64,000 nt of DNA from an uncultured Verrucomicrobiae bacterium. GTDB lineage: Bacteria; Verrucomicrobiota; Verrucomicrobiia; Chthoniobacterales; JAATET01. The DNA lies in the NCBI GenBank assembly GCA_963719495.1, contig CAVRCI010000002.1, positions 736,001 through 800,000 of the forward strand, given 5' to 3'. The notes under the pieces are model-generated. The model did no database searches. It had not been told where the DNA came from and was given only the letters and a program-made list of their open reading frames with translations. The position numbers and the translations under genes were made by a program. Of the stretch, positions 40,172-59,905 are shown piece after piece; position 1 is the stretch's first letter, and every line of letters begins with the position of its first letter.

Positions 40172-40196
40172 TGGTTTCTAGATTGCCAGGGTGGGC

Positions 40197-41717
40197 TTAG
40201 GTCCGGGGCAGCTTGTCGTCCGCCCGGAGGATGGCTTTCCAACTTTCGGGTAGTTCTTCGCTTTGTTCGCCTTCGTCGGGACCGTGCTGAATCTTGCGGC
40301 TCAGCAGGTAGATGAACAAGACGAAGAGGAGAAGGTAGACGAAAGCGAACATGATGAGCGAGGCGAGGACCTCGTTGGCCGTCACGACTTTCGAGAGGGC
40401 CTGAGACGTCTTGAGAAGCTCGTAGACGATCCAGGGTTGGCGACCAAGTTCGGCGGTGAACCAGCCGGCTTGGTTGGCGATCTGCGGCCCGATCACGGAA
40501 AGGACCAACGACCACAGCAGGAGACGCGTCGGCAACCAGTCCGTCTGAAAAAGCCAGCCGCGCCACCAGAAGAAGCAGGCCACGACGACGAGTCCGGCGA
40601 GAGCGGTGCCGATGGCGATCATGAGGTGATAAGCCTGGAAGACCGCGTTGACCTTTGGCCAATAAGACGGGCGGATCTCGGCGAGTTCTTCCTTCGTGGC
40701 GTCCGGGTAACGTTTGAGAAGGAATTCGTCCGGTGGGAGGTCGTTCAGACCAGTGACGGGCTGCTTGAAATTGTCGAAAGCGAGAAAGCTCAGAAGCCCG
40801 GGAATCCCCGGACCGGAGGTCGTGCGGTTCTTCGTATCAACCCAACCGAAGAGGGTCATCGGCGTGTAATCGGCGGTTTCGAAGACGCCTTCCATGGCGG
40901 CCAGCTTCACGGGTTGATTCACGACGACGCTCTTGGCTCCGACGCTTCCGCTGACGATCTGAAGGAGCGTTGCGACGGTCGCAAACGCGAGGCCGACTTT
41001 GATCGAGGCGCGGGAGAAATCCTTGTGACGGCCACGCAGGATGAAGAAGGCGCTGATGCTGACGACGAGAAAGGCACCGGCCATCCAAGCTCCGAGGACG
41101 ACATGCGTCAGCCGCTCGACGGAGGAGGGATTGAAGACCATCGCCCAGAAATCGGTGACGACGGCGCGGACCGAGCCCAGGTCGTCGGCGGTGACGACGT
41201 GGCCGGCGGGCAGGATGTTGGGCACTCCGTCGATCATCGTTTCGAGGTGGAAACCGGCGGGCGTCTGCATCCACGAGTTGGCGACCACGATCCAGACGGC
41301 GCTGAAGTGGGCTCCGGCGCACACCATGCAGGTGGCGAAGAAGTGGAGGCGCGGGCCGACCTTGTCCCAGCCGAAGAGCAGAAGGGCGAGGAAGCCGGAC
41401 TCGAGGAAGAAGGCGAAGATGCCCTCGGCGGCGAGGGCGCTGCCGAAGATGTCGCCGACGAAGCGCGAGTAGGTCGCCCAGTTTGTGCCGAATTCAAATT
41501 CCATCACGATGCCCGTCGCGACCCCGATGGCGAACGTGAGCGCGAAGACCCGCGTCCAGAAGCGCGCCATGTTGTGGAAGAGCGGGTTGCCGGTTTTCAG
41601 CCAGATTCCCTCCATGATCACGAGCGAAACCCCTAGGCCGATGGACAACGGCGGGTAGATGTAATGGAACATGATCGTGAATGCGAACTGCACCCGCGCG
41701 AGGATTTCGACGTCCAT
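40197..41717 (-). CDS. cydA: Cytochrome bd oxidase subunit I
   Basis: ARVQFAFTIMFHY, EFGTNW, QPVKLAAMEG, ELGRQPW. Confidence 0.97.
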   Translation of the reverse strand: MDVEILARVQFAFTIMFHYIYPPLSIGLGVSLVIMEGIWLKTGNPLFHNMARFWTRVFALTFAIGVATGIVMEFEFGTNWATYSRFVGDIFGSALAAEGIFAFFLESGFLALLLFGWDKVGPRLHFFATCMVCAGAHFSAVWIVVANSWMQTPAGFHLETMIDGVPNILPAGHVVTADDLGSVRAVVTDFWAMVFNPSSVERLTHVVLGAWMAGAFLVVSISAFFILRGRHKDFSRASIKVGLAFATVATLLQIVSGSVGAKSVVVNQPVKLAAMEGVFETADYTPMTLFGWVDTKNRTTSGPGIPGLLSFLAFDNFKQPVTGLNDLPPDEFLLKRYPDATKEELAEIRPSYWPKVNAVFQAYHLMIAIGTALAGLVVVACFFWWRGWLFQTDWLPTRLLLWSLVLSVIGPQIANQAGWFTAELGRQPWIVYELLKTSQALSKVVTANEVLASLIMFAFVYLLLFVLFIYLLSRKIQHGPDEGEQSEELPESWKAILRADDKLPRT

Positions 41718-41842: not shown

Positions 41843-43408
41843 TCAGACTCCCCGGGGGGCGACCAGGCGCTCGACGCGGCCGAGGACGAGGTCGACGGCG
41901 ATCGCCAGGAGAGCGGCGGGGATGGCTCCGGTGAGGATGAGGTTGGCGTCGTTGAGTTGGAGACCGGTGAGGATGGGCTCGCCGAGGCCGCCCGCTCCGA
42001 CGAAGGCGGCGAGGGTGGCGACGCCGACTCCGATAACGGTCGACGTGCGGACGCCGGCCATGATCGTGGGGGTGGCGAGGGGGAACTGGACGATTCGGAG
42101 GACTTGGAAGCGGGTGAGACCCATGCCGCGGGCGGCTTCGAGGAGGTCGGCGTCGACGCCGTTGATGCCGGTGAACGTGTTGCGAACGATGGGGAGGAGG
42201 GCGTAGAGGAAGAGAGCGGCGATGGCGGCCGGGAAGCCGAGGCCGAGGATCGGGATCATGAGTGCGAGGAGGGCGAGACTGGGAATCGTCTGAATGACGC
42301 CAGTGGTCCAGAGGACGGGCGGGGCGAGCCGACGCCAGTGAATGATGGCGATGCCGAGCGGAACGCCGACCGCGCAGGCGAGGAGGACGGAAAGGCCGGT
42401 GAGTTGGAGGTGCTCCCAGGTGAGCCGGGCCGTGACGCCAGCGCGCGAGAGCATGAGGGGTCCGAAACCGCGGGCGCGGGGAGCGGTGGATGCGACTTTG
42501 GGTGCTTCGGAACGGGCGTCGAGGTCGGCGAGTCGGCCGCTCGCGCGGAGGGTGAGAAACTCGGTGGCGACGTCGGCGACGCTGCGACCGCGGCCTTCGA
42601 CTTCGGCGTTGAGTTGGCGCACGCGGGCGTCGGGGAGGGTGAACGCGAGTCCGGCGAGGGCGGGTGCGATCTCGGGGTGGCGGGCGAGGATTTCGGAGCG
42701 AACGAGGGGGGCGGAATTGTAGGCGGGGAAGAATTGGCGATCGTCGAGGAGGACGCGGAGGTCGAGTTCGGCGAGTTTGCCGTCGGTGTTGTAGACGTCG
42801 ATGAGGTCGAGCTGGCCGGCGGCAATGGCGGGGTAGGCGAGGCCGTGCTCGATGCCGCGGATGTCCGGGAAAGTGAGTTCGTAGGCGGCGCGGAGGCCCG
42901 GCCAGCCGTCGGGACGGTTGAGGAATTCGTGCCCGAATCCGGCGCGGAGGTCGGGGTGGTCGGCCAGGTCGGAGATGCGGGTGATGCCGAGGGCCTCGGC
43001 CTGCTCGTCCCGCATGGCGAGGGCGTAGGTGTTGTTGGCGCCGAAGGGAGCGAGCCAGGTGAGGTCGAAGCGGTCGGTGAACTCGGTCCGGACGCGGTGG
43101 AGCGTGCGCATCGGGTCGCCGGTGGGCGATTCCTCGAGGATGGCGACGAGGCCGGTGCCGGTGTATTCGGCGTAGAGGTCGAGGGCTCCCTCCTGGAGCG
43201 CGGAGAAACAGATCATGGTCCCGCCGAGGCCGAGGCGGCGTTCGACGGTGAGGTCGGTCTCGGTCTCGATGACCTGCGCCATAATTTCGCCGAGGAGGCG
43301 AGATTCGGTGAAGTTTTTCGATCCGACGACGATCGAGTCGGATTGGGCGGTGGCGGTCGCGAGCACGCCGAACAGGGTGGCAATGAGCAGGGTGGCGATG
43401 CGGAGCAT
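41843..43408 (-). CDS. Glycine betaine/osmoprotectant-type ABC transporter, fused substrate-binding protein and permease
   Basis: VGSKNFTES, YAEYTGTG, NNTYALA, TDG; QTIPSLAL, AARGMG, VGAGGLG; start could be 43429. Confidence 0.92.
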   Translation of the reverse strand: MLRIATLLIATLFGVLATATAQSDSIVVGSKNFTESRLLGEIMAQVIETETDLTVERRLGLGGTMICFSALQEGALDLYAEYTGTGLVAILEESPTGDPMRTLHRVRTEFTDRFDLTWLAPFGANNTYALAMRDEQAEALGITRISDLADHPDLRAGFGHEFLNRPDGWPGLRAAYELTFPDIRGIEHGLAYPAIAAGQLDLIDVYNTDGKLAELDLRVLLDDRQFFPAYNSAPLVRSEILARHPEIAPALAGLAFTLPDARVRQLNAEVEGRGRSVADVATEFLTLRASGRLADLDARSEAPKVASTAPRARGFGPLMLSRAGVTARLTWEHLQLTGLSVLLACAVGVPLGIAIIHWRRLAPPVLWTTGVIQTIPSLALLALMIPILGLGFPAAIAALFLYALLPIVRNTFTGINGVDADLLEAARGMGLTRFQVLRIVQFPLATPTIMAGVRTSTVIGVGVATLAAFVGAGGLGEPILTGLQLNDANLILTGAIPAALLAIAVDLVLGRVERLVAPRGV

Positions 43409-43425
43409 GGGATAATTCTTAACGA

Positions 43426-44178
43426 TCAATTCGCCGTGCCGACTTGGGTCTTGATGAACTCGCGAACGAAATCGTTGGCGGGATTTTCGCGGAGATCGGA
43501 TTCGGTGCCGAGCTGGACGAGGCGACCGCGGTCCATGATGGCGACGCGGTCGCCGAGGTCGAAGGCTTCGGCGAGATCGTGGGTGACGAGGATGACGGTC
43601 TTACCGACTTTGGCCTGGAGGTCGCGGAATTCGGCGTGGAGCTGGCCGCGGGTGATCGGGTCGAGCGCGCCGAAGGGTTCGTCCATCAGAATGGTGTCCG
43701 GGTCGAGGGCGAGCGCGCGGGCCACGCCGATGCGCTGACGCTGACCGCCGGAGAGCTCGCGCGGGAGGCGGTGGGCGAACTCGGCGGGCGGAAGGCCGAC
43801 GAGTCCGAGCAGGTCGTGAACGCGGTCGCGGGTGCGGGGTTTTTCCCAGCCCTCGAGGTCGCAGAGGAGGCCGACGTTGCGACCAACGGTGAGGTGGGGG
43901 AAGAGCCCGCCGCTCTGGATGACGTAACCGATGCGTCGGCGGAGCGCGATCTCGTCGAGGTCACGGACGTTGGTCCCGCCGAGCAGAATCGTGCCACCGG
44001 AGGGTTCGATGAGACGATTGATCATCTTCATGACCGTCGTCTTGCCGGAGCCGCTGGTTCCGATGAGGCAGAGGGTCTCGTGCTCTTGGATCGTGAAGCT
44101 CACGCGGTCGACGGCAACGACAGCGTCGGAGCCGCGATGGGCGGGGAAGGTCTTGGAGATGTCGCGGAGTTCGATCAT
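43426..44178 (-). CDS. Osmoprotectant-type ABC transporter ATP-binding protein
   Basis: GTSGSGKT, LSGGQRQR, MDEPFGALDPITR. Confidence 0.93.
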   Translation of the reverse strand: MIELRDISKTFPAHRGSDAVVAVDRVSFTIQEHETLCLIGTSGSGKTTVMKMINRLIEPSGGTILLGGTNVRDLDEIALRRRIGYVIQSGGLFPHLTVGRNVGLLCDLEGWEKPRTRDRVHDLLGLVGLPPAEFAHRLPRELSGGQRQRIGVARALALDPDTILMDEPFGALDPITRGQLHAEFRDLQAKVGKTVILVTHDLAEAFDLGDRVAIMDRGRLVQLGTESDLRENPANDFVREFIKTQVGTAN

Positions 44179-44438: not shown

Positions 44439-44966
44439 TTATTTCGGGAGCGCGCCGGTGATCAAAAATTCTACGAAGCGAATTCGGGTCAGCTTCTCCA
44501 CCGATTCCGACTCAAGGCCGTCGCTGGAACTCTTCATGATCTCAAAGAAGACGGAACCCGGGCTTTCGATGCCGGCGGCTTCTGCTGATTTCACGGTCAA
44601 GGCCCGCGTGCCACGTTGAAGGGTTTCCGCCCAAGTCTCCCGACTTGAGATCACGCGGTCATAAAGAACGTCACCGGCTGAAAAATCGAAGAGCGCGCCC
44701 TGAGTCCAAATCATTTCGACAACCCCCTTCGCTTCTTTCGCGTCCTTCTTGAATACGCGTTGTGTCATCCGAATATCGAGAGCGGTCTTGAAAAATTTAC
44801 TGACAGGAAATGCCCACCCAACAGCGTAACCTTTCTCGAAATCGGAGAATATCTCCGTCAATCGCTTGCTGCTTTGGCACGCTCGTTGGAGAAGCTCCAG
44901 CGATCTTTGTTGATCTGGATTCAGCGAGGCAGGCGATTGGGTATTGAATTCTAGTTGGTCAGTCAT
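44439..44966 (-). CDS. Hypothetical protein (lower GC)
   Basis: 175-aa ORF; ATGA overlap with the BRCT gene. Confidence 0.6.
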   Translation of the reverse strand: MTDQLEFNTQSPASLNPDQQRSLELLQRACQSSKRLTEIFSDFEKGYAVGWAFPVSKFFKTALDIRMTQRVFKKDAKEAKGVVEMIWTQGALFDFSAGDVLYDRVISSRETWAETLQRGTRALTVKSAEAAGIESPGSVFFEIMKSSSDGLESESVEKLTRIRFVEFLITGALPK

Positions 44967-45601
44967 CGAAGGAAGCGAGTAAAGGTCTCTTCGCTAATGA
45001 TCGAAAGCTCCGATCCAGCGTTCCGTAGTTCGATCCCACGTTCGATTTTCGTTCCATAGTTGGAATACTTCCAATCCCGGCTGACAAAATGCCCGATGAC
45101 GAGGTAGCGAGTGGCGTGACGAGGCGTGCTGCTATGTTTTCCGCCCCTGGCGACGATAGCCTCCACAACCTTTGCTCGTGTTCCCAAGGCGAAGCGTCCG
45201 GTTGTGCAGAATTCAGAATTGAAGCTGAGTGCCGGAGGTTGGGGGGCGCAAAGTGGCAGTCGCGTCGAAGGGCTCTTTGCTTGCGGCGAGAAGGTCTGTT
45301 CAACTTCACCGCCAATGATCATCTCCAATATCGCCTGAAGCTCCTTAAATTCCTCGTCCGTTACGACTTCGTCCTCAAATACTTTTCCAACTCGGTCGGA
45401 TATTTCAGAGAACGGCCAAATTCCCTCCACCTCACGATACCTCGAGACCCAGTTGCGAAAAACATTTGCCTCAGCCCGATTGACTTCACCGTCCGCAAGG
45501 ATTCCCTCGCAGAGGCCGCGCAATTGGTCGAAGGCTTTTGAAACGCAGTTGTCCCACGAAGCTTTCGATCGGACAATCGGTTGCCCGTCAGAATCCCGCA
45601 A
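44963..45601 (-). CDS. BRCT-domain protein with a TerB-like N-terminal helical region
   Basis: LRGLCEGILADGEVNRAEA; FCTTGRF..GTR…YLVIG…WKYSNYGTKIERG. Confidence 0.8.
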   Translation of the reverse strand: MRDSDGQPIVRSKASWDNCVSKAFDQLRGLCEGILADGEVNRAEANVFRNWVSRYREVEGIWPFSEISDRVGKVFEDEVVTDEEFKELQAILEMIIGGEVEQTFSPQAKSPSTRLPLCAPQPPALSFNSEFCTTGRFALGTRAKVVEAIVARGGKHSSTPRHATRYLVIGHFVSRDWKYSNYGTKIERGIELRNAGSELSIISEETFTRFLR

Positions 45602-46609: not shown

Positions 46610-46912
46610 ATGAAAGCGACCTTCGATCTGCCGCCGGGTCTGGTGCGGGAAATGAAGCTTCGCGCGGTTCATGAGGGCCGAAAGCTCAAGGATCTCGCCG
46701 CAGACCTTCTGGAGCGAGGGCTCGCGACTCGGCAGAGTTCCGCGCCACCGGAACCCTCCAAGCCCCGGATCGAGATTCAGCCCAACGGAGTCCCGGTGGT
46801 TCGTTGTGGCGAGCGGGCTCCCGCAAGCCATATGAAGGTCGAAGAATTGCTCCGTTTGGAGCAGACCGCCGTCCACCAGGAGGATCTCCAGCGCCTTGGC
46901 CATTCTTTTTGA
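46610..46912 (+). CDS. Antitoxin (ribbon-helix-helix type, VapB-like)
   Basis: MKATFDLPPGLVREMKLRAVHEGRKLKDL; overlaps the PIN gene. Confidence 0.8.
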   Translation: MKATFDLPPGLVREMKLRAVHEGRKLKDLAADLLERGLATRQSSAPPEPSKPRIEIQPNGVPVVRCGERAPASHMKVEELLRLEQTAVHQEDLQRLGHSF

Positions 46913-47342
46913 TTCGAACGTCTGGGTGGCACTCACGTTTTCCGCCCACCCGCATCACTCCCTCGCTCTGCGGGAGTTCGCGACCGCAACCGCCGGAAAT
47001 CCGGTTTGTTTCTGCCGATCAACCCAGCAGAGTTTCCTGCGTCTCGCGACCACCCCAGCTCTGCTTCGCGCTTACGCTGCCGAAGGGTTCACCAATCGCG
47101 ATGCGTTGAGCGTTGTGGATTCGCTCTCCAAACTTCCCACCGTGAAGCTGCTTGCCGAGCCGACAGACTTGGAATCAGCCTGGCATCGCATCGCCAACCT
47201 GCCCTCGGCCTCGCCGAAGGTCTGGATGGATGCCTACCTCGCCGCGTTCGCCATCGGTCACGATGCCGAGTTCGTCACGCTGGACAAGGATTTCCAATCG
47301 CTCGTGAAACACGGATTGAAATTGCGGCTGCTTTCTCCGTGA
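46896..47342 (+). CDS. VapC-family PIN toxin
   Basis: LFDSNVWVAL, WMDAYLAAFA, VTLDKDF. Confidence 0.88.
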   Translation: MAILFDSNVWVALTFSAHPHHSLALREFATATAGNPVCFCRSTQQSFLRLATTPALLRAYAAEGFTNRDALSVVDSLSKLPTVKLLAEPTDLESAWHRIANLPSASPKVWMDAYLAAFAIGHDAEFVTLDKDFQSLVKHGLKLRLLSP

Positions 47343-47487: not shown

Positions 47488-47586
47488 AATAATGAGACTC
47501 ACGCGAAGCCGCGAAGGCGCGAAGAACACGTCGTTATTTGAGACCATTTCGCGCCTTCGCGCCTTCGCGTGAGAATCCAAATATTT
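47488..47586. repeat. About 100-bp palindromic REPIN-like unit (CTCACGCGAAG arms)
   Basis: rc similar to 54057-54150 and 56932-57033, including the spacer. Confidence 0.8.
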
Positions 47587-47723: not shown

Positions 47724-48464
47724 TCAGCTCGTTGCCTCGCAGACGGGCCAGATGGTGAGTTGGTCGACGTTGACTCGTTTGGGGAGGCGGAGGCAGGTGA
47801 TGGCCAGCTCCGCGAGGTCGGAGGGTTGGATGCGGTCTTCGCGGGGCCAGGGCATGGAGTTTTCGCCGCCGGCGAGTTGGGACCAGGCGGTGTTGACGGC
47901 GGCGGGGCAAAGGCAGTGGACCCGGATGCCGTGGGTGCGGATTTCTTCGTAGAGGGATTTCGAAAATCCGAGGACCCCGTATTTAGCAGCGGCGTAGCTG
48001 GCGTATTGCGGGAAAGGGAGGACGGAGCAAATGGAGCCGACGTTGAGGATGAAGCCGTGGCGACGGGATTTCATGGTCCCGACGACGGCGCGGCTGCCGT
48101 AGATGACGCCCTTGAGGTTGACGTCGATCTGGAGGTCGATTTCCTCGGCGCTGGTATCGTCGAGGGGTTTGGCGACGGCGTTGCCGGCGTTGTTGACGAG
48201 GATGTCGACCTGGCCGAAGTGGTCGAGGGCGCGGGCGACGAGGCGGTCGCAGTCGGCGGCTTTGGAGACGTCGGTGGGGACGGTGATGGCTTCGGTGCCG
48301 GGCGGGAGTTTGGTGAGGAGTTTCTGGAGTTTGTCTTCGCGGCGGGCGGCGAGGACGAGGCGCATGCCTTCGGCGGCAAAGCGTTCGGCCATGCCCCAGC
48401 CGATGCCGGAGGAGGCTCCGGTGATGATGGCGACTTGGTTGGTGAGGGTTTCGGGTTCGTTCAT
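47724..48464 (-). CDS. Short-chain dehydrogenase/reductase
   Basis: TGASSGIG, ARR (NADP-preferring), NNAG, YAAAK. Confidence 0.95.
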   Translation of the reverse strand: MNEPETLTNQVAIITGASSGIGWGMAERFAAEGMRLVLAARREDKLQKLLTKLPPGTEAITVPTDVSKAADCDRLVARALDHFGQVDILVNNAGNAVAKPLDDTSAEEIDLQIDVNLKGVIYGSRAVVGTMKSRRHGFILNVGSICSVLPFPQYASYAAAKYGVLGFSKSLYEEIRTHGIRVHCLCPAAVNTAWSQLAGGENSMPWPREDRIQPSDLAELAITCLRLPKRVNVDQLTIWPVCEATS

Positions 48465-48574
48465 AAGCCTGTTGGGAGGAGTGAATAGTTGAGAGTTAGC
48501 AGTTGAGAGTTTGAGATGGGCAACGCGGACCGGACCGTTGAGTCCTCAGGCATTCGACTCTCAACTAGGAACTC

Positions 48575-49966
48575 TCAACTTCCTTTCTTCGAGAAGAGCG
48601 TGCGGGCGGCGACGAGGGCGGGGGCTTCGCCTTGGGCGAAGATGGTGCGGGCTTCGCGGGCGGGGTTGGTGCGGGCGGCGAAGCGGGCACGGAGTGGATC
48701 GAGGTGGCGCTCTTCGTCGAGGCCGCGGCGGCGGAGGCCGAGGTTGGCGACGTCGAGCATTTGGGTGATCAAGTCGGTGACCGGACGATCGCCAACCCGG
48801 GCGTCGAGGCCGTGGCGGTAGGCGTCGGGGCGGGCCCGGGTGAGGTCGGGCCAATCCCAGGCGGCGAGGGCTTCCCCGGCCTCGGGGAGGGCGGCGGTGA
48901 GACCGGTCGTGAGCGCGGCGGGGAGGAGAAGGTCGGTGGGAGGTTGCTGGTCGTTGACGCGGTTTTCGACGGTGAAGTAGCGGGAGATGCGGGCGTTATA
49001 CCAGTAGCAGGAGTTGTGGAGATCGAGGTCGCCGGGCTCGGGGGAGACGCTGACCCGTCGAGGATTCTTGCGGTCATCGGTGGTGGCGAGTTGGGCGGGG
49101 TGCGACGGCGCTTCGAGAAATTCGCCGAAGGTCGGTGGGTCGGGGAAGGTTGGCTGGCCATCGGGGCGTCGGACGTAGAGGAGGTCGAGCTCGGCGATGG
49201 TGTCGGCGTAGTGGTCGAGGTCGGTGAAACGGTGGGGTGGGAGCCCGACGCGGCCGCGGGCGGGGGCCCACCAATCCCAGAACGCTTCGCTGACCATTTC
49301 GTGATCGGGGTCGACGGCGTTGCGCCAGACGCTGGAGTTGGCGTTGATCGCGATCTGCGCGGGGGCGAAGCCGTTGAGGACGTTGACCGCGGAGATGGCT
49401 TCGCCGGGCGGGAGGGAGACGTGGACGTGCGATCCGGCGTTGATGGTGAAGAGATCCATGTCGTCGCCGGTGCCGGGCGGGATGACTTCGTTGGATCGGA
49501 AAATTTCGCCCCAGACGCTGGCGCGTTTTTTCGTCATTCGGAGCTCGGGCGACGGCGGCGTGACCGGGTGAATGCCGCAGCCGAGGAAATGGCGGTCGGT
49601 GTGCTCGGTGAACTCGCGAAGGTCGGTGCGGAGGTCGGTGATCTGACGGTCGAGGGCGTGGAGGTCGGCGACGTGGGCGAGGGAGAATTCGACTTTGCAG
49701 TAGCCGGTCTCGGAGGAGCCGACGGTGTCGTTGCGTTCGCCGGGGCGGGTGGCTCCGATGAGGTGGCCTTCCTCGGTCTGCGGGGTCCACTCGCGATCAG
49801 CTAGGAAGCGCCAGAGGTGTTGGACGTCTTCGCGGGATGCGGCGGTGCCGTCGGGGGCGACGAGGGGGAATTTCAGTTCAGCCCCGAGGCGGGTGGAGCC
49901 GGGCTGGTCGAAGCGGGCGAGTCCGCGGGCGAAGGCCTCGCGGACCGGTGTGGAGTCAACCGTCAT
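48575..49966 (-). CDS. Glutamate-cysteine ligase (GCS2) family protein, divergent
   Basis: LGAELKF, SETGYCKVEFS, GCGIHP, AGSHVHVS, ANSS, WYNARI, TVENRVNDQQP. Confidence 0.8.
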   Translation of the reverse strand: MTVDSTPVREAFARGLARFDQPGSTRLGAELKFPLVAPDGTAASREDVQHLWRFLADREWTPQTEEGHLIGATRPGERNDTVGSSETGYCKVEFSLAHVADLHALDRQITDLRTDLREFTEHTDRHFLGCGIHPVTPPSPELRMTKKRASVWGEIFRSNEVIPPGTGDDMDLFTINAGSHVHVSLPPGEAISAVNVLNGFAPAQIAINANSSVWRNAVDPDHEMVSEAFWDWWAPARGRVGLPPHRFTDLDHYADTIAELDLLYVRRPDGQPTFPDPPTFGEFLEAPSHPAQLATTDDRKNPRRVSVSPEPGDLDLHNSCYWYNARISRYFTVENRVNDQQPPTDLLLPAALTTGLTAALPEAGEALAAWDWPDLTRARPDAYRHGLDARVGDRPVTDLITQMLDVANLGLRRRGLDEERHLDPLRARFAARTNPAREARTIFAQGEAPALVAARTLFSKKGS

Positions 49967-51245
49967 GAGGCTCGTCCCAGTTGCCCATGGCGTCGCCGTG
50001 GCCGCGGATGACGTAGCGCGGGATGGTGAGGTCTTCGAGGCCAATGGGGCCGCGGGCGTGGAGCCGGTCGGTGGAGATGCCGATCTCGGCTCCGAGACCA
50101 AGCGCCGCGCCGTCGTCGAACATGGTGGAGGCGTTGACGAGGGTGACGGCGGAGTCGACTTCGGTTTCGAACCGGCGGGCGCTGCCCTCGCTGTCGGTGA
50201 TGATCCTGTCGGTGTGGTGGGAGCCGTGGCGCTCGATGTGGGCGATGGCGGTGGCGAGGTCGGGGACGACGCGGATGGCCAGGGTGAGACCGAGGTATTC
50301 GGTGTCCCAATCGGCGTCGGTGGCGGCTTCGACGTCGGGGAGGACGGCTCGGGTTCGCTCGCAGCCGCGGAGGGTGACGCCCTGGCGCTGAAGGGCGGCG
50401 GCGATGGTGGGCAGGTGAGTGGCGGCGGCGGATTCGTGGACGAGAAGGGTCTCGAGGGCGTTGCAGACTTCGGGGAGGAGGCACTTGCTGTCGACGACGA
50501 TGCGGGTGGCGGCGGCGAGTGGGGCGGTGGCGTCGACGAAGGCGTGGCAGATGCCGTCCTCGTGTTTGAGGAGGGGGATTTTCGACTGCTCGCGGATGCG
50601 GCGGACCATGGGTTTGCTGCTGCGGGGGATGACGAGCGTGATGAGGTCGTCCATTTGCAGCAGCTCGCCGACTTCGTCGTGGGAGCATTGGACGACCTGA
50701 ATGGCGACGGGTGGGAGGTCGGCGGCGGCGAGCGATTGGGTCCAGAGGTCGGCCAGGGCGGCATTGGTGCGGGCGACTTCGGAGCCGCCGCGGAGGAGGC
50801 AGGCGTTGCCGGATTTCAGGCAGAAGGCACCGGCGTTGACGGTGACGTGGGGGCGAGCCTCGTAGATCATGAGGATGAGCCCGAGCGGGGTGCGGACGCG
50901 GCGGACGTCGAGGCCGCGGTCGGTGCGCCAGGCGCGGACGGGTTGGCCGACGGGGTCGGGCAGGGCGGCGATGTCGCGGAGGGCGTCGCGGCGGGAATCG
51001 ACCTTCGCGTTGTCGAAGCTGAGACGCTTGACGAGGGCGGTTGGGAGGTCGCGTTTGCGGGCGGCGTCGAGGTCGCCTTGATTGGCGGCGGTGAGCTGGT
51101 CTCGGTGGGTGTCGAGGAGGTCCCGGAGGTGGAGGAGCGCGTGGTTTTTTGCAGAGGTCGGGCTGCGGGCGAGGATGCGGGCGGCGGACGCACCCGCGTG
51201 GGCTGCTTCGAGAACGGAGGACGTGGTGGGTTGGTTGGGCGTCAT
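49956..51245 (-). CDS. proA: Gamma-glutamyl phosphate reductase
   Basis: PLGLILMIYEARP, LKSGNA..LRGGSE, GICH, CNALETLLVH, HGSHHTD, NAST.FDDG..GLGAEIGIST..LHARGP. Confidence 0.92.
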   Translation of the reverse strand: MTPNQPTTSSVLEAAHAGASAARILARSPTSAKNHALLHLRDLLDTHRDQLTAANQGDLDAARKRDLPTALVKRLSFDNAKVDSRRDALRDIAALPDPVGQPVRAWRTDRGLDVRRVRTPLGLILMIYEARPHVTVNAGAFCLKSGNACLLRGGSEVARTNAALADLWTQSLAAADLPPVAIQVVQCSHDEVGELLQMDDLITLVIPRSSKPMVRRIREQSKIPLLKHEDGICHAFVDATAPLAAATRIVVDSKCLLPEVCNALETLLVHESAAATHLPTIAAALQRQGVTLRGCERTRAVLPDVEAATDADWDTEYLGLTLAIRVVPDLATAIAHIERHGSHHTDRIITDSEGSARRFETEVDSAVTLVNASTMFDDGAALGLGAEIGISTDRLHARGPIGLEDLTIPRYVIRGHGDAMGNWDEPHDG

Positions 51246-52138
51246 TTTGGAGGAAGGAGGGCCGCGCGTTTTTCGAGGACCTGACTGCCGAGTCGCACGG
51301 TGATCTCGAGTTCGTCGATGAGGCGGAAGGGAAGGCGGTCGCGTTGGCGGGCGAGTCGTTGCCAATCGAGCGCGACGGTTTGGAAATCGCTTTCGTAGCG
51401 GGCGAGGCGGGCGATGAGGGCACCGTCGGGAGCGGCTACGTGGGACCCGCCGGTGAAAACGAGACCGCCCTCGGGACCGGCGATGTTCGTGCAGGCGACA
51501 TACATCGAGAGGGTGAGCGCGTGGGTTTGGTTGAGGCGTTCCCAGGCGGCCATGGTGTCGAAGGCGGGATCGAGTCCGCCCTCGGGGCTGGCGGTGAGCA
51601 CGAGGATGAGGTCGACGCCTTCGTGGGCGAGGAGGTAGGCGAGGGAGGGGTGCCAGGCGTCGGCGCAAATGAGCATGGCCAGACGGCCCCAGGGGGTGTC
51701 GAACGACCCGAGGTGCTGCCCGGCTTTGAAGCGCCGGCCTTCGTCGAAGCCGCCGTAATTGGGGAGGTAAAGTTTGCGGTGGACGTGCCAGATCTGCCCG
51801 GCGTGGAGGAAGGCGGCGCTGTTGTAGCATTCGCCGTTGGGTCCGTGTTCGGCGAATCCCACGGCGAGGGCGACCCGTTGCGAGGCTTCGAGGAGTGGTT
51901 TCCAGATGGGGTTGTCCAGCGAGATGGCGCTGTCGGCTTGCTCGAGCGGATCGACGAGGTAGCCGGTGAGGCAGAGTTCGGGGCAGAGAAGGATTCCCGC
52001 GCCGGCGGCGTGGGCCCGCTCGGCGTGGTCGAGGATCAGGCCCGCATTGTGGCCGGTGTCGTAGGTATGCGACGCGAATTGGGCGAGCGCGAGGGTCAGA
52101 TCGCGCTGCGGGGAGGGGATCGGCTCGGATGGCGCCAC
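51242..52138 (-). CDS. Carbon-nitrogen hydrolase (nitrilase superfamily), resembling the NadE glutaminase domain
   Basis: E-K-C triad: CPELCLTGY, HRKLYLPNYGGFDE, LICADAWHP. Confidence 0.9.
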   Translation of the reverse strand: MAPSEPIPSPQRDLTLALAQFASHTYDTGHNAGLILDHAERAHAAGAGILLCPELCLTGYLVDPLEQADSAISLDNPIWKPLLEASQRVALAVGFAEHGPNGECYNSAAFLHAGQIWHVHRKLYLPNYGGFDEGRRFKAGQHLGSFDTPWGRLAMLICADAWHPSLAYLLAHEGVDLILVLTASPEGGLDPAFDTMAAWERLNQTHALTLSMYVACTNIAGPEGGLVFTGGSHVAAPDGALIARLARYESDFQTVALDWQRLARQRDRLPFRLIDELEITVRLGSQVLEKRAALLPPK

Positions 52139-52158
52139 GGGCGATCCCTCGAGCAAAC

Positions 52159-52932
52159 TCAGAGTCCGATCTGCTTCAGGAAATCCGTGGGCACGGGCGC
52201 CTTGATGCGTCCGATGAGAGCGTAGTATTTCAGCGGGACGCCTTCCATGGAGAGTCGGTGCACGTAGCGCTCGAGGTGGCAGACCTGCAGATATTCCGAG
52301 AAGATGAGCTCGCGGACGAAGACGGAGAATCCGGATTTGTCCGAGCGGTCGAGGAAGGTCTCTTTGATGTTGAAGGCGACCCAGCCACCGGTCGTGATGA
52401 ATTGCAGCGCCTGGACGAACGCCGCGGTGGGAATGTCGCCGAACCCGAGCGCGGCGACGGAGGTGAGGCAATCGAAGTTCCATTCGTGGAGCTCGCGTTT
52501 TTGGTCCTCGTTCAGATTGGTGAAATCGGAGATGAGGTAGTCGTCGTAGGCGGTCGGCCGGTCGCGGTAGGCGGCCCGGCGGGCCGACTCGATGATGTCG
52601 GCGCCGACGATTCGGGAGGCACCGTGGCAGCGGAGTTCGTCGGCCATCATGCCGTTGCCCGCGCCGAGATCGAGGGTGCGGAGTTCGCTCATTCCGAGCC
52701 ATTCGGCGCGAAGACTGGCCTCGAGCAGGTCGCAAACCTTGCGGGGTGAGCAGCACTTGAGGCGCTCGTAAAACAGCTGCTCGTAGAGGCCGGGGCGCTC
52801 GTAGATTGCTTCATAGTCGTGGAACCGAATGCGTTGTTTCGAGTCTCCTTCGATGAGATTGAAGAAGGCGGTGTCCTGGCTGAGATCGTGTTCCTGGCTG
52901 GACGGAAACTGGATTCGGTGGCGAGTGAGCAT
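52159..52932 (-). CDS. Class I SAM-dependent methyltransferase
   Basis: TLDLGAGNG, VGADI, FDCLTSVAAL, GGWVAF. Confidence 0.88.
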   Translation of the reverse strand: MLTRHRIQFPSSQEHDLSQDTAFFNLIEGDSKQRIRFHDYEAIYERPGLYEQLFYERLKCCSPRKVCDLLEASLRAEWLGMSELRTLDLGAGNGMMADELRCHGASRIVGADIIESARRAAYRDRPTAYDDYLISDFTNLNEDQKRELHEWNFDCLTSVAALGFGDIPTAAFVQALQFITTGGWVAFNIKETFLDRSDKSGFSVFVRELIFSEYLQVCHLERYVHRLSMEGVPLKYYALIGRIKAPVPTDFLKQIGL

Positions 52933-53223
52933 ACGGATATTGTGAGGGTGACTGGCGGTAAGAGTGCTGATCTTTGGTTTGGATTCCCGGCTGGAAGTCG
53001 GGGGACGAGCTTCGAGTTGCTCGTAGAAACCAGCTCGCGAGATTGGGACCCGAATCCGGAACCGCAAGGGTAATAAATTCGGACGGCAGCGTAATGACCT
53101 CGTTTTGGGGGGGGAACCGCTTCGCTCGGGCAAGGATGTCCGGACTTAAAAAATGCGCTTTGTGAGCCCAGCTCGACGAGCGTGCTTGCACCGTTGCCCG
53201 GACCGCAGATAGCTATCCAGTAT

Positions 53224-54024
53224 ATGATACGGCAAATTACTTTTACGGCGCTCGCGCTGACGGCCTGGTTCGGAACGTCACTGCTCCGTGCGGAGACCGT
53301 GGCGTATTTCCACACTTGGGACGACGACCTCTCCGTCCTGCGGAGCGAAGCGATGGAGCCTGGGCAGCGAAGCACGGCGGGTGGCGCCGAGGTTGAAATC
53401 TTCAAGCTCGGTGAACACCGCGTTGTGGCGGCGAAAGTCGGTGCCGGCGACGTCGCCGCGGCCGTGATCGCTCAGGGTGTGTTGACGAAGTTTCCCTGCT
53501 CCCGGGTCATCTCGGTGGGGCCGGTCGGCGCTCTGGAGGGAGCGGCTAAGATCGGCGCGTGGTTTTTCGTGGAGCGGGTCGTGGCGTATCAGCGGGGGAC
53601 CGAGGATGCCGGAGGATTCTTGTTGGCCCGGGCTGCGACGCAGACGTTGACGGTGCTGGAAGCCGGTGGAGGTGTGAGAAAACTGCCGCGCCTGGTGGTC
53701 GCGAGCGGTGAAGTTTTCAGCGGGTCGAATGCCTTTCGCGCCGAGGTGCGGGGGCGGAGTGACGCGGACGCGATCGACATGAACCTCTTCGGGTTGGCCG
53801 CCGCGGCTCGCGCTCACGACGTGCCGATGACGGCGCTCCGCGTGATCAGCAATCACGCGGGTGACGGGGCGGGCGTCGAATTTGGGAGGTTTTCCCGGGA
53901 TTACGACGGTGAGGGTGGGCGACTTGCGGTGGCGCTGATTCGGAGCCTCTCCGCGGAAGATGGGGAGCGGGTTGCGGAGGGCATTTCAGAAATCGATCCG
54001 TCGAACGAATCCTCGGCGGAATAG
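53224..54024 (+). CDS. MTA/SAH nucleosidase-like (PNP/UDP phosphorylase fold) protein with signal peptide
   Basis: VISVGPVGAL, VASGEVF, AIDMN, ALRVISNHA. Confidence 0.7.
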   Translation: MIRQITFTALALTAWFGTSLLRAETVAYFHTWDDDLSVLRSEAMEPGQRSTAGGAEVEIFKLGEHRVVAAKVGAGDVAAAVIAQGVLTKFPCSRVISVGPVGALEGAAKIGAWFFVERVVAYQRGTEDAGGFLLARAATQTLTVLEAGGGVRKLPRLVVASGEVFSGSNAFRAEVRGRSDADAIDMNLFGLAAAARAHDVPMTALRVISNHAGDGAGVEFGRFSRDYDGEGGRLAVALIRSLSAEDGERVAEGISEIDPSNESSAE

Positions 54025-54056: not shown

Positions 54057-54150
54057 GAAAATATCGGGATTCTCACGCGAAGGCGCGAAGGCGCGAAAAG
54101 GTCTCAAATGCGACGGATTCTTCGCGCCTTCGCGTGAGTCTGATTATTTA
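54057..54150. repeat. REPIN-like unit, copy 2
   Basis: Similar to 56932-57033 and rc of 47488-47586. Confidence 0.8.
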
Positions 54151-56637: not shown

Positions 56638-57174
56638 TTCTCACGCGTGGGCGCGGAGGCGCGGAGAAGATTCTCAAAATCACCCGGCACCCCTCCCGGA
56701 CTTGTCATGTTGAGAACCACGAACGCGCAAGCGCGTCAAGAAGCCGGGGATGACAGGGCGGCGCCAGCCGACCCCATCTGGCATTCGGAGGGCAGCCGGA
56801 GCGAAGCGGAGACAGTCGGGATACTTCCGACAACGCTCCTGCCGAGCCGTGGCTTTCACGTCCGACGCCGCCTCACCTGAAGCGATGTCATTGGCAGCGA
56901 AGCGAAACATCTCTGGTTAATACCATTTCAAGAAAATATCTGGATTCTCACGCGAAGCCGCGAAGCCGCGAAAAGGTCTCAGATGCTACGTATTCTTCGC
57001 GCCCTCGCGGCTTCGCGTGAGTCTGATGATTTACTGGGTTTGGTATAACACCCGTTCGGTGGACGCAGATGCAGTGTAAGCCAGAGATCCTTCACTTCGT
57101 TCAGGATGACAGTTTGGGGCTTTATAAGGCTTCGCAACCTCTTCTCCGCGCCTCCGTGCCCTCCGCGTGAGAAT
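56638..57174. repeat. Nested inverted-repeat complex (three repeat types)
   Basis: Outer arms 56638-56669 / 57141-57174; middle arms 56886-56916 / 57081-57111; inner unit 56932-57033. Confidence 0.8.
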
Positions 57175-57215: not shown

Positions 57216-57235
57216 TATCGTGTAATTACACGATA
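57216..57235. promoter_or_regulatory. Perfect 20-bp palindrome, putative LexA operator
   Basis: TATCGTGTAATTACACGATA, overlapping the A of the lexA ATG. Confidence 0.7.
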
Positions 57236-57867
57236 TGGAGCGATTGACGGAGAAGCAGGCGCGGATTGCGCGGGTGATCGGGGCCTTCGAGGACCGGGGG
57301 GAACCGGCTTTCGTGCCGGATCTGGCGCGGGCCTTGGGGTTGGCGGGGGAGAGTAGTCTCACGCCGACGTTGCGGATCCTCGTGCGCGAGGGTTGCGTGA
57401 CGATGCGGGGTGGCGGGAGCAAGGGGCGGTCGCGGGTGGTGCGTTTGACGCCGCGGGGCCGCTACGCGGTGGCGCTGGGTGGGGTGCCGCTGCTGGGATC
57501 GATCCCGGCGGGGCCGCTGGCGGAGGCGATTCCGGAGGATGTGCTCGAGGAGCGGGAGCTGCTGGCGGTGCGACCGGGGGACTTTCTGCTGCGGGTGCGG
57601 GGGGATTCGATGATCGGCGATGGGATCATGGACGGGGACAAAGTGCTGCTGCGGCCGGAGGTCGCGGCGCGGTCGGGGGAGATCGCGGCGGTGCTGGTGG
57701 GCGACTCGCACGAGGCGACGCTCAAGCACGTGATCCCCGATCCGAAGCGGGGGTTGGTAATCCTGCGGGCGAGTAATCCGTTCTACGTGGACGTGCGGGT
57801 GCCGGTGGAGGAGGTGCGGATCGCGGGGGTCTTTCGTGGGTTGGTGCGAAACGTGGTGGAGGGGTGA
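57235..57867 (+). CDS. lexA: LexA-family repressor (S24 peptidase) with a divergent HTH
   Basis: LGSIPAG cleavage site, RVRGDSM (Ser), EATLK (Lys). Confidence 0.9.
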   Translation: MERLTEKQARIARVIGAFEDRGEPAFVPDLARALGLAGESSLTPTLRILVREGCVTMRGGGSKGRSRVVRLTPRGRYAVALGGVPLLGSIPAGPLAEAIPEDVLEERELLAVRPGDFLLRVRGDSMIGDGIMDGDKVLLRPEVAARSGEIAAVLVGDSHEATLKHVIPDPKRGLVILRASNPFYVDVRVPVEEVRIAGVFRGLVRNVVEG

Positions 57868-57913
57868 GTTTTGAACGGAGCACCGGAGGCTGGGAGCACC
57901 GGAGGCTGGGAAG

Positions 57914-58054
57914 GCTCGGGGCAGACGCCATCGGCTCTGCGATGGTGCCCGAAGGGCGAGACGCTTGGGAAAGCGCGAGTCCACGCTCGGGGCAGACTGC
58001 ATCGGCTCTGCGATGCAGCCCGAAGGGCGAGACGAGCGGGAGCGAGCGAGTCAA
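57914..58054. repeat. Two tandem copies of the structured multi-hairpin repeat
   Basis: Match to 3228-3297. Confidence 0.85.
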
Positions 58055-58282
58055 CACAGCACAACTTTCAAAATGGGTGATGGGTTTGAGCTTCGCTTGG
58101 GGTTGGGTCGGCGATTGGAAATCGCCGCTCCTCGAGGGGGCGGCTCTCTCGCTTCGCTCGATTTGCCGGGTGCCGCGGCGGGACGCCGCGGCTTGCACGC
58201 GGGGACGCGTGCGCTCCCCAACTTCGGCGGCTGGAGCCGGAGCAAAGCGGAGACAGACGAAGTCAACCCGCCGCTCCTTGAA

Positions 58283-58957
58283 ATGAATTCGGATAAGATC
58301 ATTCAGTTTGAAGCGCTTCGGGCGAAGCTGGCGGCGGATTTTCCGGCTCCTCCGGCGGAGAATGGCGGGCGGGTGCCGACTGGCGTTGCCGCGTTCGATG
58401 GTTCGGCGGGTGGGTTGCGCCGGGGGGCGGTGAGCGAGTTTGCGGGGTCGCTGGGTTCGGGGTCGCTGTTCTTGGAGGTGTTCTTCGCGGCGGCGCGGGC
58501 GGCTCGGTGTCCGGTTGGTCTCGTGGATGGTGGGTGTTCGTTCGAGCCGGGGGATTGGGATCCGGTTCTTTTGCGGCGGGTGCTGTGGGTGATGGCGGCG
58601 GAGGGGCGTCAGGCTCTCAAGGCGGCGGATCTGCTGCTGCGGGACGGGAATTTGCCGATGGTGGCGCTGGATTTGCAGGGGCTGCCGGAGGCGGAGGTGC
58701 GGCGGATCCCGGCGAGCACGTGGCACCGGTATCAGCGGGTGGCGGAGGGGACGGAGACGGTGTTCGTGGTGGTGACGCGGCGTCCGCTGGTCGAGGGGGC
58801 GCGGGTGCGGATGGTCGCGGGATCGCGCTGGGGCCTGGAGGCGATGCGGCTGCTTCGGAGCGAGCTGGTGGCGCGGATGGAGGTGCGGGTGACAGAGCGG
58901 GTCGTGGCGGGGCCGGTGGAGGCAGTGGAATCGGGCGAAAGGCGGTGGTCGGCGTGA
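58283..58957 (+). CDS. imuA: ImuA-like RecA-fold accessory protein
   Basis: VPTGVAAFD…GLRRGAVSE, LVDG..SFEP, ALKAADLLLRDGNLPMVALD; position in the cassette. Confidence 0.82.
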   Translation: MNSDKIIQFEALRAKLAADFPAPPAENGGRVPTGVAAFDGSAGGLRRGAVSEFAGSLGSGSLFLEVFFAAARAARCPVGLVDGGCSFEPGDWDPVLLRRVLWVMAAEGRQALKAADLLLRDGNLPMVALDLQGLPEAEVRRIPASTWHRYQRVAEGTETVFVVVTRRPLVEGARVRMVAGSRWGLEAMRLLRSELVARMEVRVTERVVAGPVEAVESGERRWSA

Positions 58958-59064
58958 GGGGGGGGATATTTATGATTTATGATTTACGATTGATGATTTT
59001 GGGAGAAGTCCCGGTGATATCGGGTCAAGCTTCTCTCAACTTTCGACTCGCAACTTTTAACTTC

Positions 59065-59511
59065 TCACTCAGGCAGCTCCAGGCCTTCGGCCTTGGCGAG
59101 GGTTCGTTGGTTTTCGTCGAAGGTGAGGAAGACGCCGGCTTCGAGCTGGAGGGCGGTGGCGACGTGGAGGATGTCGAAGGCGCGGTGGCCGCCGACGAGG
59201 GTGTGCGTGGCGGAGAGGCGTTTGGCCTCGGCGAGGACGGCGGGGAGGCTGACGGCGGCGATGGCGATGCGCTCACCTACGATATCGACTTCGAGATCGT
59301 GGATGATGCGATGAGCCTCTTCGACGGTCTGAAAGCCGCGGCAGGCTGCGAACCTCATGGCGTTGGTGAATTCGTAGAGAATCAGCTCCGAGACTCGGAT
59401 GCGTCGAGCGTAGGACGCGGCGATGGTGCGGGCGCGCTCGGAGTGGACTTCTGTTTTGTAGAGGGAGACGAGGAAGCTGGTGTCGCAGCAGACCGGGCGA
59501 AAGGCTACCAC
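59065..59511 (-). CDS. VapC-family PIN toxin
   Basis: CDTSFLVSLY, RAFDILHVATA, FLTFDENQ. Confidence 0.88.
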   Translation of the reverse strand: MVAFRPVCCDTSFLVSLYKTEVHSERARTIAASYARRIRVSELILYEFTNAMRFAACRGFQTVEEAHRIIHDLEVDIVGERIAIAAVSLPAVLAEAKRLSATHTLVGGHRAFDILHVATALQLEAGVFLTFDENQRTLAKAEGLELPE

Positions 59512-59756
59512 TTGCCGCTGGCCTCTTCGCGGATGATGCGGGATTCCTCCTCGGTGAGCATGCGCTCGTTGGTGCGATCGCGGGTGAAGGCGGCGCTCTT
59601 CGACCAGTCGACGAAATCGTCGGCGCGGTCGTTCTCCGGCACGAGGCGGGCGATGTTTTTGCCCCGGCGGGTGATGATGATTTCTTCGCCGGCTTCGATC
59701 CACTTGAGGAGGTCGGCGTAATGATTGCGAAGGTCGCGGACGGTGGCGGTGCGCAT
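59505..59756 (-). CDS. Phd/YefM-family antitoxin
   Basis: MRTATVRDLRNH…GEEIIITRRGKNIARLVP; palindrome GCTACA-AAG-TGTAGC just upstream. Confidence 0.9.
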   Translation of the reverse strand: MRTATVRDLRNHYADLLKWIEAGEEIIITRRGKNIARLVPENDRADDFVDWSKSAAFTRDRTNERMLTEEESRIIREEASGKW

Positions 59757-59905
59757 GGTGCTACAAAGTGTAGCGAAATCGGGGGCGGGTCAATGGGGGG
59801 AATGAAGGGGATTGCGGATTTCGGATTGCGGATTGCGGATTGGTTGGGTGGGGCGGCCTCTTTCGACTTGGGACTTTCGACTTTCGACTCTTCACCTCTC
59901 CCGCC

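Follow-up and report, generated by a model that had tools for sequence, protein, structure and literature searches.

In a 64,000-nt stretch of DNA from an uncultured Verrucomicrobiae bacterium (contig CAVRCI010000002.1, positions 736,001 to 800,000; hereafter the window), a paralogue of γ-glutamyl-phosphate reductase, ProA*, is encoded beside Lig*, an enzyme of the GCS2/plant glutamate-cysteine ligase (GCL) fold. These two genes lie in a five-gene cluster together with genes for a class I S-adenosylmethionine (SAM) methyltransferase (the window MTase), a nitrilase and a short-chain dehydrogenase/reductase (SDR). Our results indicate that the conserved unit is the ProA*-Lig* pair, not the five genes, and that this pair occurs across several phyla at a frequency far beyond chance. 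Both enzymes differ from their best-known relatives at residues that probably form part of the substrate site, and we tentatively relate the pair to the metabolism of a betaine-type solute.

Conservation and paralogue status of the ProA*-Lig* pair

A search with Lig* gave 337 matches among the 8000 candidates scored, and 101 loci, some of them mutual duplicates, were compared (21 from genomes and 80 of the 105 from metagenomes). Of the loci with at least 1.5 kb of flank, 71 of 72 have the end of ProA* at a distance of no more than 1.5 kb on the upstream side of Lig*, which rules out an artefact or a chance neighbourhood. The named carriers belong to Planctomycetota, Verrucomicrobiales, Hydrogenedentota, Sumerlaeota, Nitrospirota, Latescibacterota and Deltaproteobacteria, and the cyanobacterial carriers are named Rivularia and Microcoleaceae. 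In loci of the cyanobacterial type the pair stands almost alone; on one contig the two genes form a unit of their own, with an unrelated SDR after it. An earlier note on this DNA, made from the sequence alone, had proposed all five genes as one pathway, and this does not hold across genomes: the window MTase was found in none of the 101 loci, the nitrilase in one and an orthologue of the SDR in eight, and the pair alone is conserved. Vertical inheritance of the module in the source lineage is unlikely, because Lig* was not found in 60 relatives and was found at full length in only one other of 400 genomes of the phylum. Four loci (L042, L055, L072 and L088, for example L088:8853-9929) carry an open reading frame (ORF) of ~358 aa between ProA* and Lig*, which by eye resembles the core of cobalamin-independent methionine synthase and had no Pfam match at 1e-5. 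In clusters of the anaerobe type, the region upstream of ProA* often encodes a sigma-54 response regulator as well as two small ORFs that are receiver-like (L008:1657-2456 and more than 30 related loci).

ProA* scores above both ProA cut-offs examined (NF001221, 503 vs 289 bits; TIGR00407, 408 vs 317 bits). The genome also encodes a second, canonical ProA on contig C13, 44.7% identical to ProA*, as well as proB on contig C1 and proC on contig C4; as the earlier note had stated, the window itself holds neither proB nor proC. A tree was built from 69 sequences of ProA* and 45 of canonical ProA, leaving out those with stops or fewer than 340 aligned residues. In it, ProA* forms one side of a branch with SH-aLRT support of 98, and the other ProA of the genome groups with relatives from its class. 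The separate clade and the second, canonical copy rule out that ProA* is the housekeeping enzyme. Among the 21 carrier genomes, 17 have a second proA match (one of them partial) and 15 have proB. The suggestion of a dedicated ProA paralogue beside a separate housekeeping proBA was therefore borne out by the canonical proA and proB elsewhere, the clade of its own and the pairing with Lig*. In the literature covered by listings and abstracts, most subscription journals lying outside it, we found no account of a GCS2 enzyme that has a ProA paralogue as its partner; the earlier note likewise did not recognize its five-gene combination as a described pathway. The earlier note had named an unconserved cluster, a sole proA that groups with the canonical ones and a known pathway as findings that would count against it, and none of the three was observed.

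Probable changes of the substrate sites in ProA* and Lig*

The catalytic Cys, Arg and His of the ALDH18 type (C261, R131 and H228), named as active-site residues of this family in an excerpt of PMC12041015, are kept in all 69 ProA* sequences, and together with K254, D378 and E387 they are invariant in ProA* and canonical ProA alike. In contrast, position 375 is Met in 69/69 ProA* and Arg in 45/45 canonical sequences (R375M), and position 256 is Leu in 68/69 ProA* and Gln in 45/45 canonical ones (Q256L). N133H, D137N and F382L are further fixed differences, and the canonical motifs NASTRF and K-x-Q-R-P read NASTM(F/Y) and K-x-L-M-P in ProA*. Glu383 and Phe372 of Escherichia coli ProA, which govern specificity according to a passage of PMC6941894, correspond by motif to E387 and F376, and position 375 directly adjoins F376. 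In canonical ProA, R375 may bind the α-carboxylate of the substrate.

Lig* is over the cut-off of the GCS2 family (PF04107; 31.7 bits) and below all NCBIfam equivalog cut-offs for GCL and YbdK (best 49 vs 332 bits). A plain sequence search of the PDB gave no match to Lig*, and a profile search gave matches. The structure model of Lig* (pLDDT 94.3) was closest by Foldseek to plant GCL 2GWC (E 4.5e-20, TM 0.78). We aligned 132 members of the Lig* group with their 107 next-nearest GCS2 relatives from a further profile search, leaving out fragments below 400 aa; the group boundary was set after a first alignment had been viewed, and a 70-row tree then gave the group with K32 a support of 99. Position 32, the second Glu of the ExE motif, is Lys in 131/132 Lig* sequences and Glu in 104/107 of the outgroup, so that the metal/glutamate-amine motif G-x-E-x-E reads G-x-E-x-K. 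An excerpt of PMC5613772 (Table 3) lists contacts of this Glu in yeast GCL with the glutamate nitrogen and Mg1. Likewise, Arg at position 226 is found in 0/132 Lig* sequences (Ala, Ser, Gly, Asn or Thr instead) and in 104/107 outgroup sequences. In a hidden Markov model (HMM) alignment this position matches the Arg of SMRSHIW in the R-x-x-x-W helix of plant GCL, which we take to bind the α-carboxylate of glutamate. The Lig* group has also gained K91, W152, W233 and N176 and lost Y149 (Tyr in 87/107 of the outgroup), a residue that presumably lines the acceptor site in plant GCL. E30, E93, H182, R326, E334 and R336 are kept, as are E86 and R148. Lig* probably retains the activation machinery of its fold and has a changed glutamate site, as judged from these alignments. 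Its sister group (P0140-P0269) is a large, diverse set of GCS2 proteins of ~420-480 aa with the ExE and Arg motifs intact.

The module resembles the pair of ProB and ProA (P5CS in eukaryotes) in the ProA fold, the catalytic Cys and the ~45% identity to the ProA of the same genome, and a labile acyl phosphate would likewise pass between the products of two adjacent genes. However, the partner of ProA* is a GCS2-fold enzyme rather than an amino-acid kinase, ProA* carries its own two motifs, and the genome has its housekeeping proB, proA and proC at other sites. With plant-type GCL, EgtA and YbdK (2GWC, 1R8G), Lig* shares the fold and the six residues E30, E93, H182, R326, E334 and R336, but at 19% identity it carries Lys in place of the second Glu of ExE, lacks the Arg of R-x-x-x-W, gains K91 and two Trp residues and stays below the NCBIfam cut-offs. 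Ergothioneine biosynthesis (egtABCD) was ruled out, the earlier note having given egtB and egtD as absent: the genome, which is 98.6% complete, gave no egtD match, and for egtB a partial match below cut-off outside the cluster. The module would work like ProB-ProA, yet the features tested place it in neither ProBA nor GCL/EgtA.

Gene context in related loci and in the window

Among the 59 long loci, which have at least 8 kb of flank, 55 contain MttB, 42 a SAM methyltransferase of 430 aa (MT430), 40 OpuA, 37 a DUF362/[4Fe-4S] protein and 11 a corrinoid protein. In Lig* loci outside the window, two non-pyrrolysine MttBs, MT430 and an OpuABC importer stand beside the pair, and genes for MttB, corrinoid protein and methyltetrahydrofolate methyltransferase occur in many of them. 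Neither MttB nor MT430 was found in the source genome. The MT430 model resembles N-methyltransferases weakly (TM 0.3-0.4). The idea of a methylated osmolyte as product gains support from the MttB pair, MT430 and OpuABC of other loci, and so from genes outside the window.

An excerpt of PMC13080624 describes binding of the betaine carboxylate by MtgB through R312 and H348, and conservation of R312 in the characterized MttBs that act on acidic quaternary amines. In the related loci, MttBa has Tyr at the R312 position in 56/57 sequences and Asp at the H348 position in 53/57, and MttBb has Tyr at both in 34/34. With R375M in ProA*, the loss of R226 in Lig* and Tyr for R312 in the MttBs, three unrelated families thus lack an Arg for a carboxylate adjacent to the amine. 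The loci resemble the non-pyrrolysine MttB systems (MtgB, MtpB, MtcB, MtyB and MthB/MthK) in their MttB paralogues and Opu-type importer, and sometimes in a corrinoid protein and a methyltetrahydrofolate methyltransferase. They are unlike them in the Tyr/Asp or Tyr/Tyr at R312/H348 and in the source genome without MttB, and MthK activates choline by a serine-kinase-like enzyme rather than by ProA*/Lig*. On the model of the pyrrolysine-containing trimethylamine methyltransferase, the MttBa found in locus L007 and its relatives reaches 387 bits; it has no stop at the pyrrolysine position, where we take its motif to look one residue short; that the ProA* module makes a free pyrroline-type cofactor is speculative.

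Two exclusion patterns were observed. In 35 well-flanked loci, 5 have only the SDR orthologue, 26 only the DUF362/[4Fe-4S] gene, none both and 4 neither; zinc alcohol dehydrogenases lie near Lig* in loci L044, L069/L070 and L095. Further, 401 Planctomycetota genomes were searched for MT430, and of the 19 that carry it 8 have only Lig*, 7 only an AsnB-like gene, none both and 4 neither. Three of the eight were already among the genome loci compared, and five came from a search of the remaining 16 genomes. The AsnB-like genes adjoin MT430 or Opu genes in assemblies that lack Lig*, no Lig* locus has an AsnB-like match, and the seven AsnB loci contain neither an SDR orthologue nor DUF362. These data are suggestive of an AsnB-like amide synthetase replacing the whole ProA*/Lig*/SDR-or-DUF362 module. 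The MT430 tree requires at least three such swaps, and the two types of cluster do not differ in their MttB pocket residues. Taking the place of the module in seven sister clusters, the AsnB-like genes recall the AsnB-type amidotransferases of solute synthesis (AsnO of NAGGN; TIGR03104). Unlike these, they are closest to asparagine synthase B, fall below the TIGR03104 cut-off and in several cases are without the N-terminal Cys; an Ngg partner was not seen with them in the sister clusters. They lie at L195:4476-6080, L202:10115-11596 and L203:2467-3942 and also in L204, L208, L209 and L210. The N-terminal Cys is kept in L203 and lost in L195, L202 and L209, suggesting that the latter may be ammonia- or amine-dependent forms.

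In the window, the five ORFs of the cluster are co-oriented (Table 1), and the junctions are as first described, with a gap of 20 bp between the window MTase and the nitrilase, an ATGA overlap of nitrilase and ProA* and an 11-bp overlap of ProA* and Lig*. Lig* and SDR are separated by 110 bp containing an inverted repeat. Promoter and terminator scans gave matches at the level of shuffled sequence, and the sole match of an Rfam scan was a tRNA outside the cluster.

Table 1 Coordinates of the five-gene cluster and nearby Opu genes in the window
Feature	Position	Strand	Description
Class I SAM methyltransferase (window MTase)	52159..52932	minus	257 aa; Methyltransf_23/11
Nitrilase	51242..52138	minus	298 aa, GTG start; CN_hydrolase, NadE-glutaminase-like amidase
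ProA* (γ-glutamyl-phosphate-reductase paralogue)	49956..51245	minus	429 aa; module core
Lig* (GCS2/plant-GCL fold)	48575..49966	minus	463 aa; module core
SDR	47724..48464	minus	246 aa; adh_short; accessory redox step
OpuA-type ABC ATPase	43426..44178	minus	3.5 kb downstream of cluster
Fused OpuC-type binding protein and OpuB permease	41843..43429	minus	
Inverted repeat, 24-nt	48487..48580		Lig*-SDR gap

The nitrilase has an invariant Glu-Lys-Cys triad (E54, K122 and C158) and a KxxLPNY motif. Its best NCBIfam match is NAD+ synthase, below cut-off, its best PDB match is 5KHA, and it is closest to NadE glutaminase domains; a role as NadE subunit was ruled out, since the NadE of the genome lies within a 677-aa frame on contig C14. 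Eight close homologues share 66-70% identity with it, after which identity drops to 45%. The subclade appears to be linked to the Lig* subclade of the window: for five of the eight, the longest contig has the same length as that of a top Lig* match (11362, 16121, 7500, 13356 and 20038), a shared locus being directly seen for the last of these, L013, alone. An SDR is present in 12 of the 101 Lig* loci, in eight of them at 45% identity or more (49-74% within the subfamily). The window MTase belongs to a common family (7078 matches among 7533 candidates), and its homologues lie in unrelated contexts in five other genomes. We regard it as a passenger or local replacement and not, as the earlier note had proposed, as the methylating step of the pathway. 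An MTA/SAH-nucleosidase-like gene (53182-54024, plus strand) is divergent from it and could recycle its S-adenosylhomocysteine.

The Opu genes lie on the same strand as the cluster, separated from SDR by two low-GC ORFs and a PIN gene, and the OpuA is 45-59% identical to that of related Lig* clusters. In the PDB, the OpuC-type binding domain is closest to the scaffold of iAChSnFR/iNicSnFR, followed by EgtUC, OpuCC and OpuBC; this scaffold of the acetylcholine and nicotine sensors is presumably a choline/betaine-binding OpuBC. The two low-GC hypothetical ORFs (44439-45601) and a small ORF with the PIN-domain gene (46610-47342, plus strand), likely a VapBC-type toxin-antitoxin pair, are the insertions between SDR and OpuA, and there may be another such pair near 59065-59700. 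The Opu transporter is directly followed by cydAB, encoding cytochrome bd oxidase (39155-41717, minus strand). A palindromic element of ~90 bp, resembling repetitive extragenic palindromic (REP) sequences, occurs three times (47498-47573, 54072-54138 and 56947-57021), with two copies in inverted orientation flanking the cluster and the next gene and more copies on contigs C2, C4, C8, C9 and C13. On the plus strand at 57235-63687, a LexA-like gene (57235-57867), an ImuA-like ORF without Pfam match (57965-58957), ImuB (IMS domain; 59840-61480) and an ORF starting at 61454 look like a lexA-imuA-imuB-dnaE2 mutagenesis cassette, with dnaE2 putative.

Proposed function of the module and alternatives

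From the pairing, the paralogue status of ProA*, the fold of Lig*, the residue changes and the exclusions, we infer the reactions, direction and substrate of the module as follows. The explanation that we favour, while holding it tentatively, is that ProA*-Lig* forms an acyl-phosphate relay that masks the carboxylate of a betaine-type solute, Lig* taking the kinase role of ProB and ProA* and the SDR carrying out the reductions. Lig* would phosphorylate, at the expense of ATP and in the manner of ProB, the carboxylate of an N-methylated amino acid other than glutamate, ProA* would form the aldehyde by reducing this acyl phosphate, and a further reduction by the SDR would give the alcohol. One carboxylate would thereby be masked and a net-neutral or choline-like solute obtained, a product without a free carboxylate beside the amine. 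In the sister clusters, the AsnB-like enzyme would mask the carboxylate by amidation instead. In the source genome, which has neither MttB nor MT430, the nitrilase may release the acid by cleaving an imported amide, or serve as a source of ammonia. The module is interchangeable with an enzyme that amidates a carboxylate: either the same acid is masked in two ways, as alcohol or as amide, or the same amide is made from different precursors. The former is favoured because ProA* would run in the direction native to ProA, no ammonia donor is required (100 of the 101 loci lack the nitrilase), the route would work in cyanobacteria, and homoserine betaine and glutamate betaine, both given as cyanobacterial solutes in an excerpt of PMC6753628, are a precedent of this kind. 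The series of acid, acyl phosphate, aldehyde and alcohol is also that of aspartokinase, Asd and homoserine dehydrogenase, and a methylated amino alcohol or betaine serves as solute in the cases of homoserine betaine (Trichodesmium) and of the conversion of choline to betaine (GbsAB/OpuB and BetAB). However, the folds of aspartokinase, Asd, homoserine dehydrogenase, GbsAB and BetAB are unrelated to ProA*/Lig*. GbsAB and BetAB use non-phosphorylating aldehyde dehydrogenases.

Several points weigh against this explanation. The AsnB swap and the NadE-like nitrilase fit the formation of an amide at least as directly. The HMM alignment of Lig* with plant GCL is gapped at ExE, so that the change from Glu to Lys is called from the closer outgroup, and the putative roles of R375, R226 and N176 (the T242 equivalent) were mapped by alignment. 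Only 8 of the 101 loci have the SDR orthologue, and DUF362, which gave ferredoxin-like matches alone, has no known chemistry. Locus L097 has both the SDR and a distant DUF362 protein, whose 30% identity is under the 38% threshold used. The Fisher values (0.0004 and 0.013) overstate the case, as loci are redundant and related. The carrier genomes are incomplete assemblies, and since the organisms compared for the exclusions are also related to one another, these counts are to be read as suggestive rather than as a test. A predicted complex of ProA* and Lig* scored 0.00, which gives no verdict and was used neither for nor against.

A route to an amide ranks close behind, as a possible explanation though one we find less probable, owing to the same AsnB swap and NadE-like nitrilase. 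Here SDR or DUF362 would oxidize an imported choline-like alcohol, ProA* would convert the aldehyde to the acyl phosphate, and Lig* would join to it ammonia, with the nitrilase as glutaminase, or an amine, giving the same amide as the AsnB-like enzyme. That the AsnB-like gene and the pair never occur together, and that their MttB pockets are identical, is consistent with this, as are the native chemistry of the GCS2 fold, which is amide ligation, the retention of E86 and R148 in Lig*, the failure to find betA and cutC in the source genome and the closeness of the nitrilase to NadE glutaminase domains, though the genome has a NadE of its own. On the other hand, the nitrilase was found in one of the 101 loci, no known solute fits (a betaine amide would be a permanent cation), and Lig* has lost the Tyr149 that we take as an acceptor-site residue of plant GCL. 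Energy-conserving catabolism appears unlikely: a non-acidic methylated amine would be imported, demethylated by MttB where present and oxidized to the aldehyde, and ProA* and Lig* would run backwards to yield acid and ATP. The importer, the MttB, corrinoid and methyltetrahydrofolate methyltransferase genes of many loci, the MttB pockets without a carboxylate Arg and the oxidative direction of ProA in vitro, mentioned in a passage of PMC6941894, would agree with such a use. However, a SAM methyltransferase accompanies the pair in 42 of the 59 long loci, the AsnB-like enzyme that replaces the module is biosynthetic and consumes ATP, and cyanobacteria as well as genomes lacking MttB carry the pair.

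Two further explanations involve glutamate. In a version of the proposal in the earlier note, Lig* and ProA* would act on glutamate, or on N-methylglutamate or glutamate betaine, to give a proline- or glutamate-derived osmolyte methylated by the window MTase, which seems at least as improbable as catabolism. ProA* does pass the ProA cut-offs and keeps D378 and E387, glutamate betaine is among the cyanobacterial solutes of the PMC6753628 excerpt, and both MttB-free carriers of the Verrucomicrobial type hold the 257-aa MTase somewhere, which the four tested MT430 carriers do not. Against it stand the absence of an Arg for the adjacent carboxylate from three unrelated cluster families and the absence of the window MTase from all 101 loci. 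Plain glutamate or proline is an unlikely substrate, since ProA* and Lig* have both replaced residues that probably bind an α-carboxylate or α-amine. These changes also weaken the γ-glutamylation/deglutamylation alternative, a cycle of the Puu or Ipu type in which Lig* would glutamylate an amine, SDR and ProA* would oxidize it and the nitrilase would remove the glutamyl group. Although a ligase, dehydrogenases and an amidase do share one operon, we regard this as very improbable: Lig* has lost glutamate-recognition residues that its outgroup keeps, the hydrolase is missing from 100 of the 101 loci, and ProA* is of the phosphorylating, not the hydrolysing, type of aldehyde dehydrogenase.

A wider form of the relay explanation, which we consider doubtful, would make the module a ProB-free route to a methylated compatible solute, combining a GCS2-fold ligase turned carboxylate kinase, with Lys in place of one metal site, and a re-specified ProA. 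The alcohol form (ProA*/Lig* with SDR or DUF362) or the amide form (AsnB-like) would then occur in sediment Planctomycetota, Verrucomicrobiota, other phyla and some cyanobacteria, the corrinoid MttBs of the anaerobes would run in the methylating direction to add methyl groups, and the DUF362 proteins would be ferredoxin-linked alcohol/aldehyde oxidoreductases.

The window adds an MttB-free version of the module with SDR and nitrilase, residue-level evidence and the two exclusion patterns, and its copy is the simplest test case, comprising four soluble, cofactor-simple enzymes without B12 chemistry. The genes of the module are annotated as ordinary ProA and glutamate-cysteine ligase, which calls for caution with such annotations. 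The exclusions suggest functions for orphan families, with DUF362/[4Fe-4S] proteins standing in for the SDR and ProA*/Lig* for an AsnB-like enzyme. The module would bring to the GS/GCS fold a new type of reaction (kinase-only, or aminolysis of an acyl phosphate); it would also provide a naturally occurring ProA that acts on a new substrate, and a candidate pathway for a methylated solute of sediment bacteria and marine cyanobacteria.

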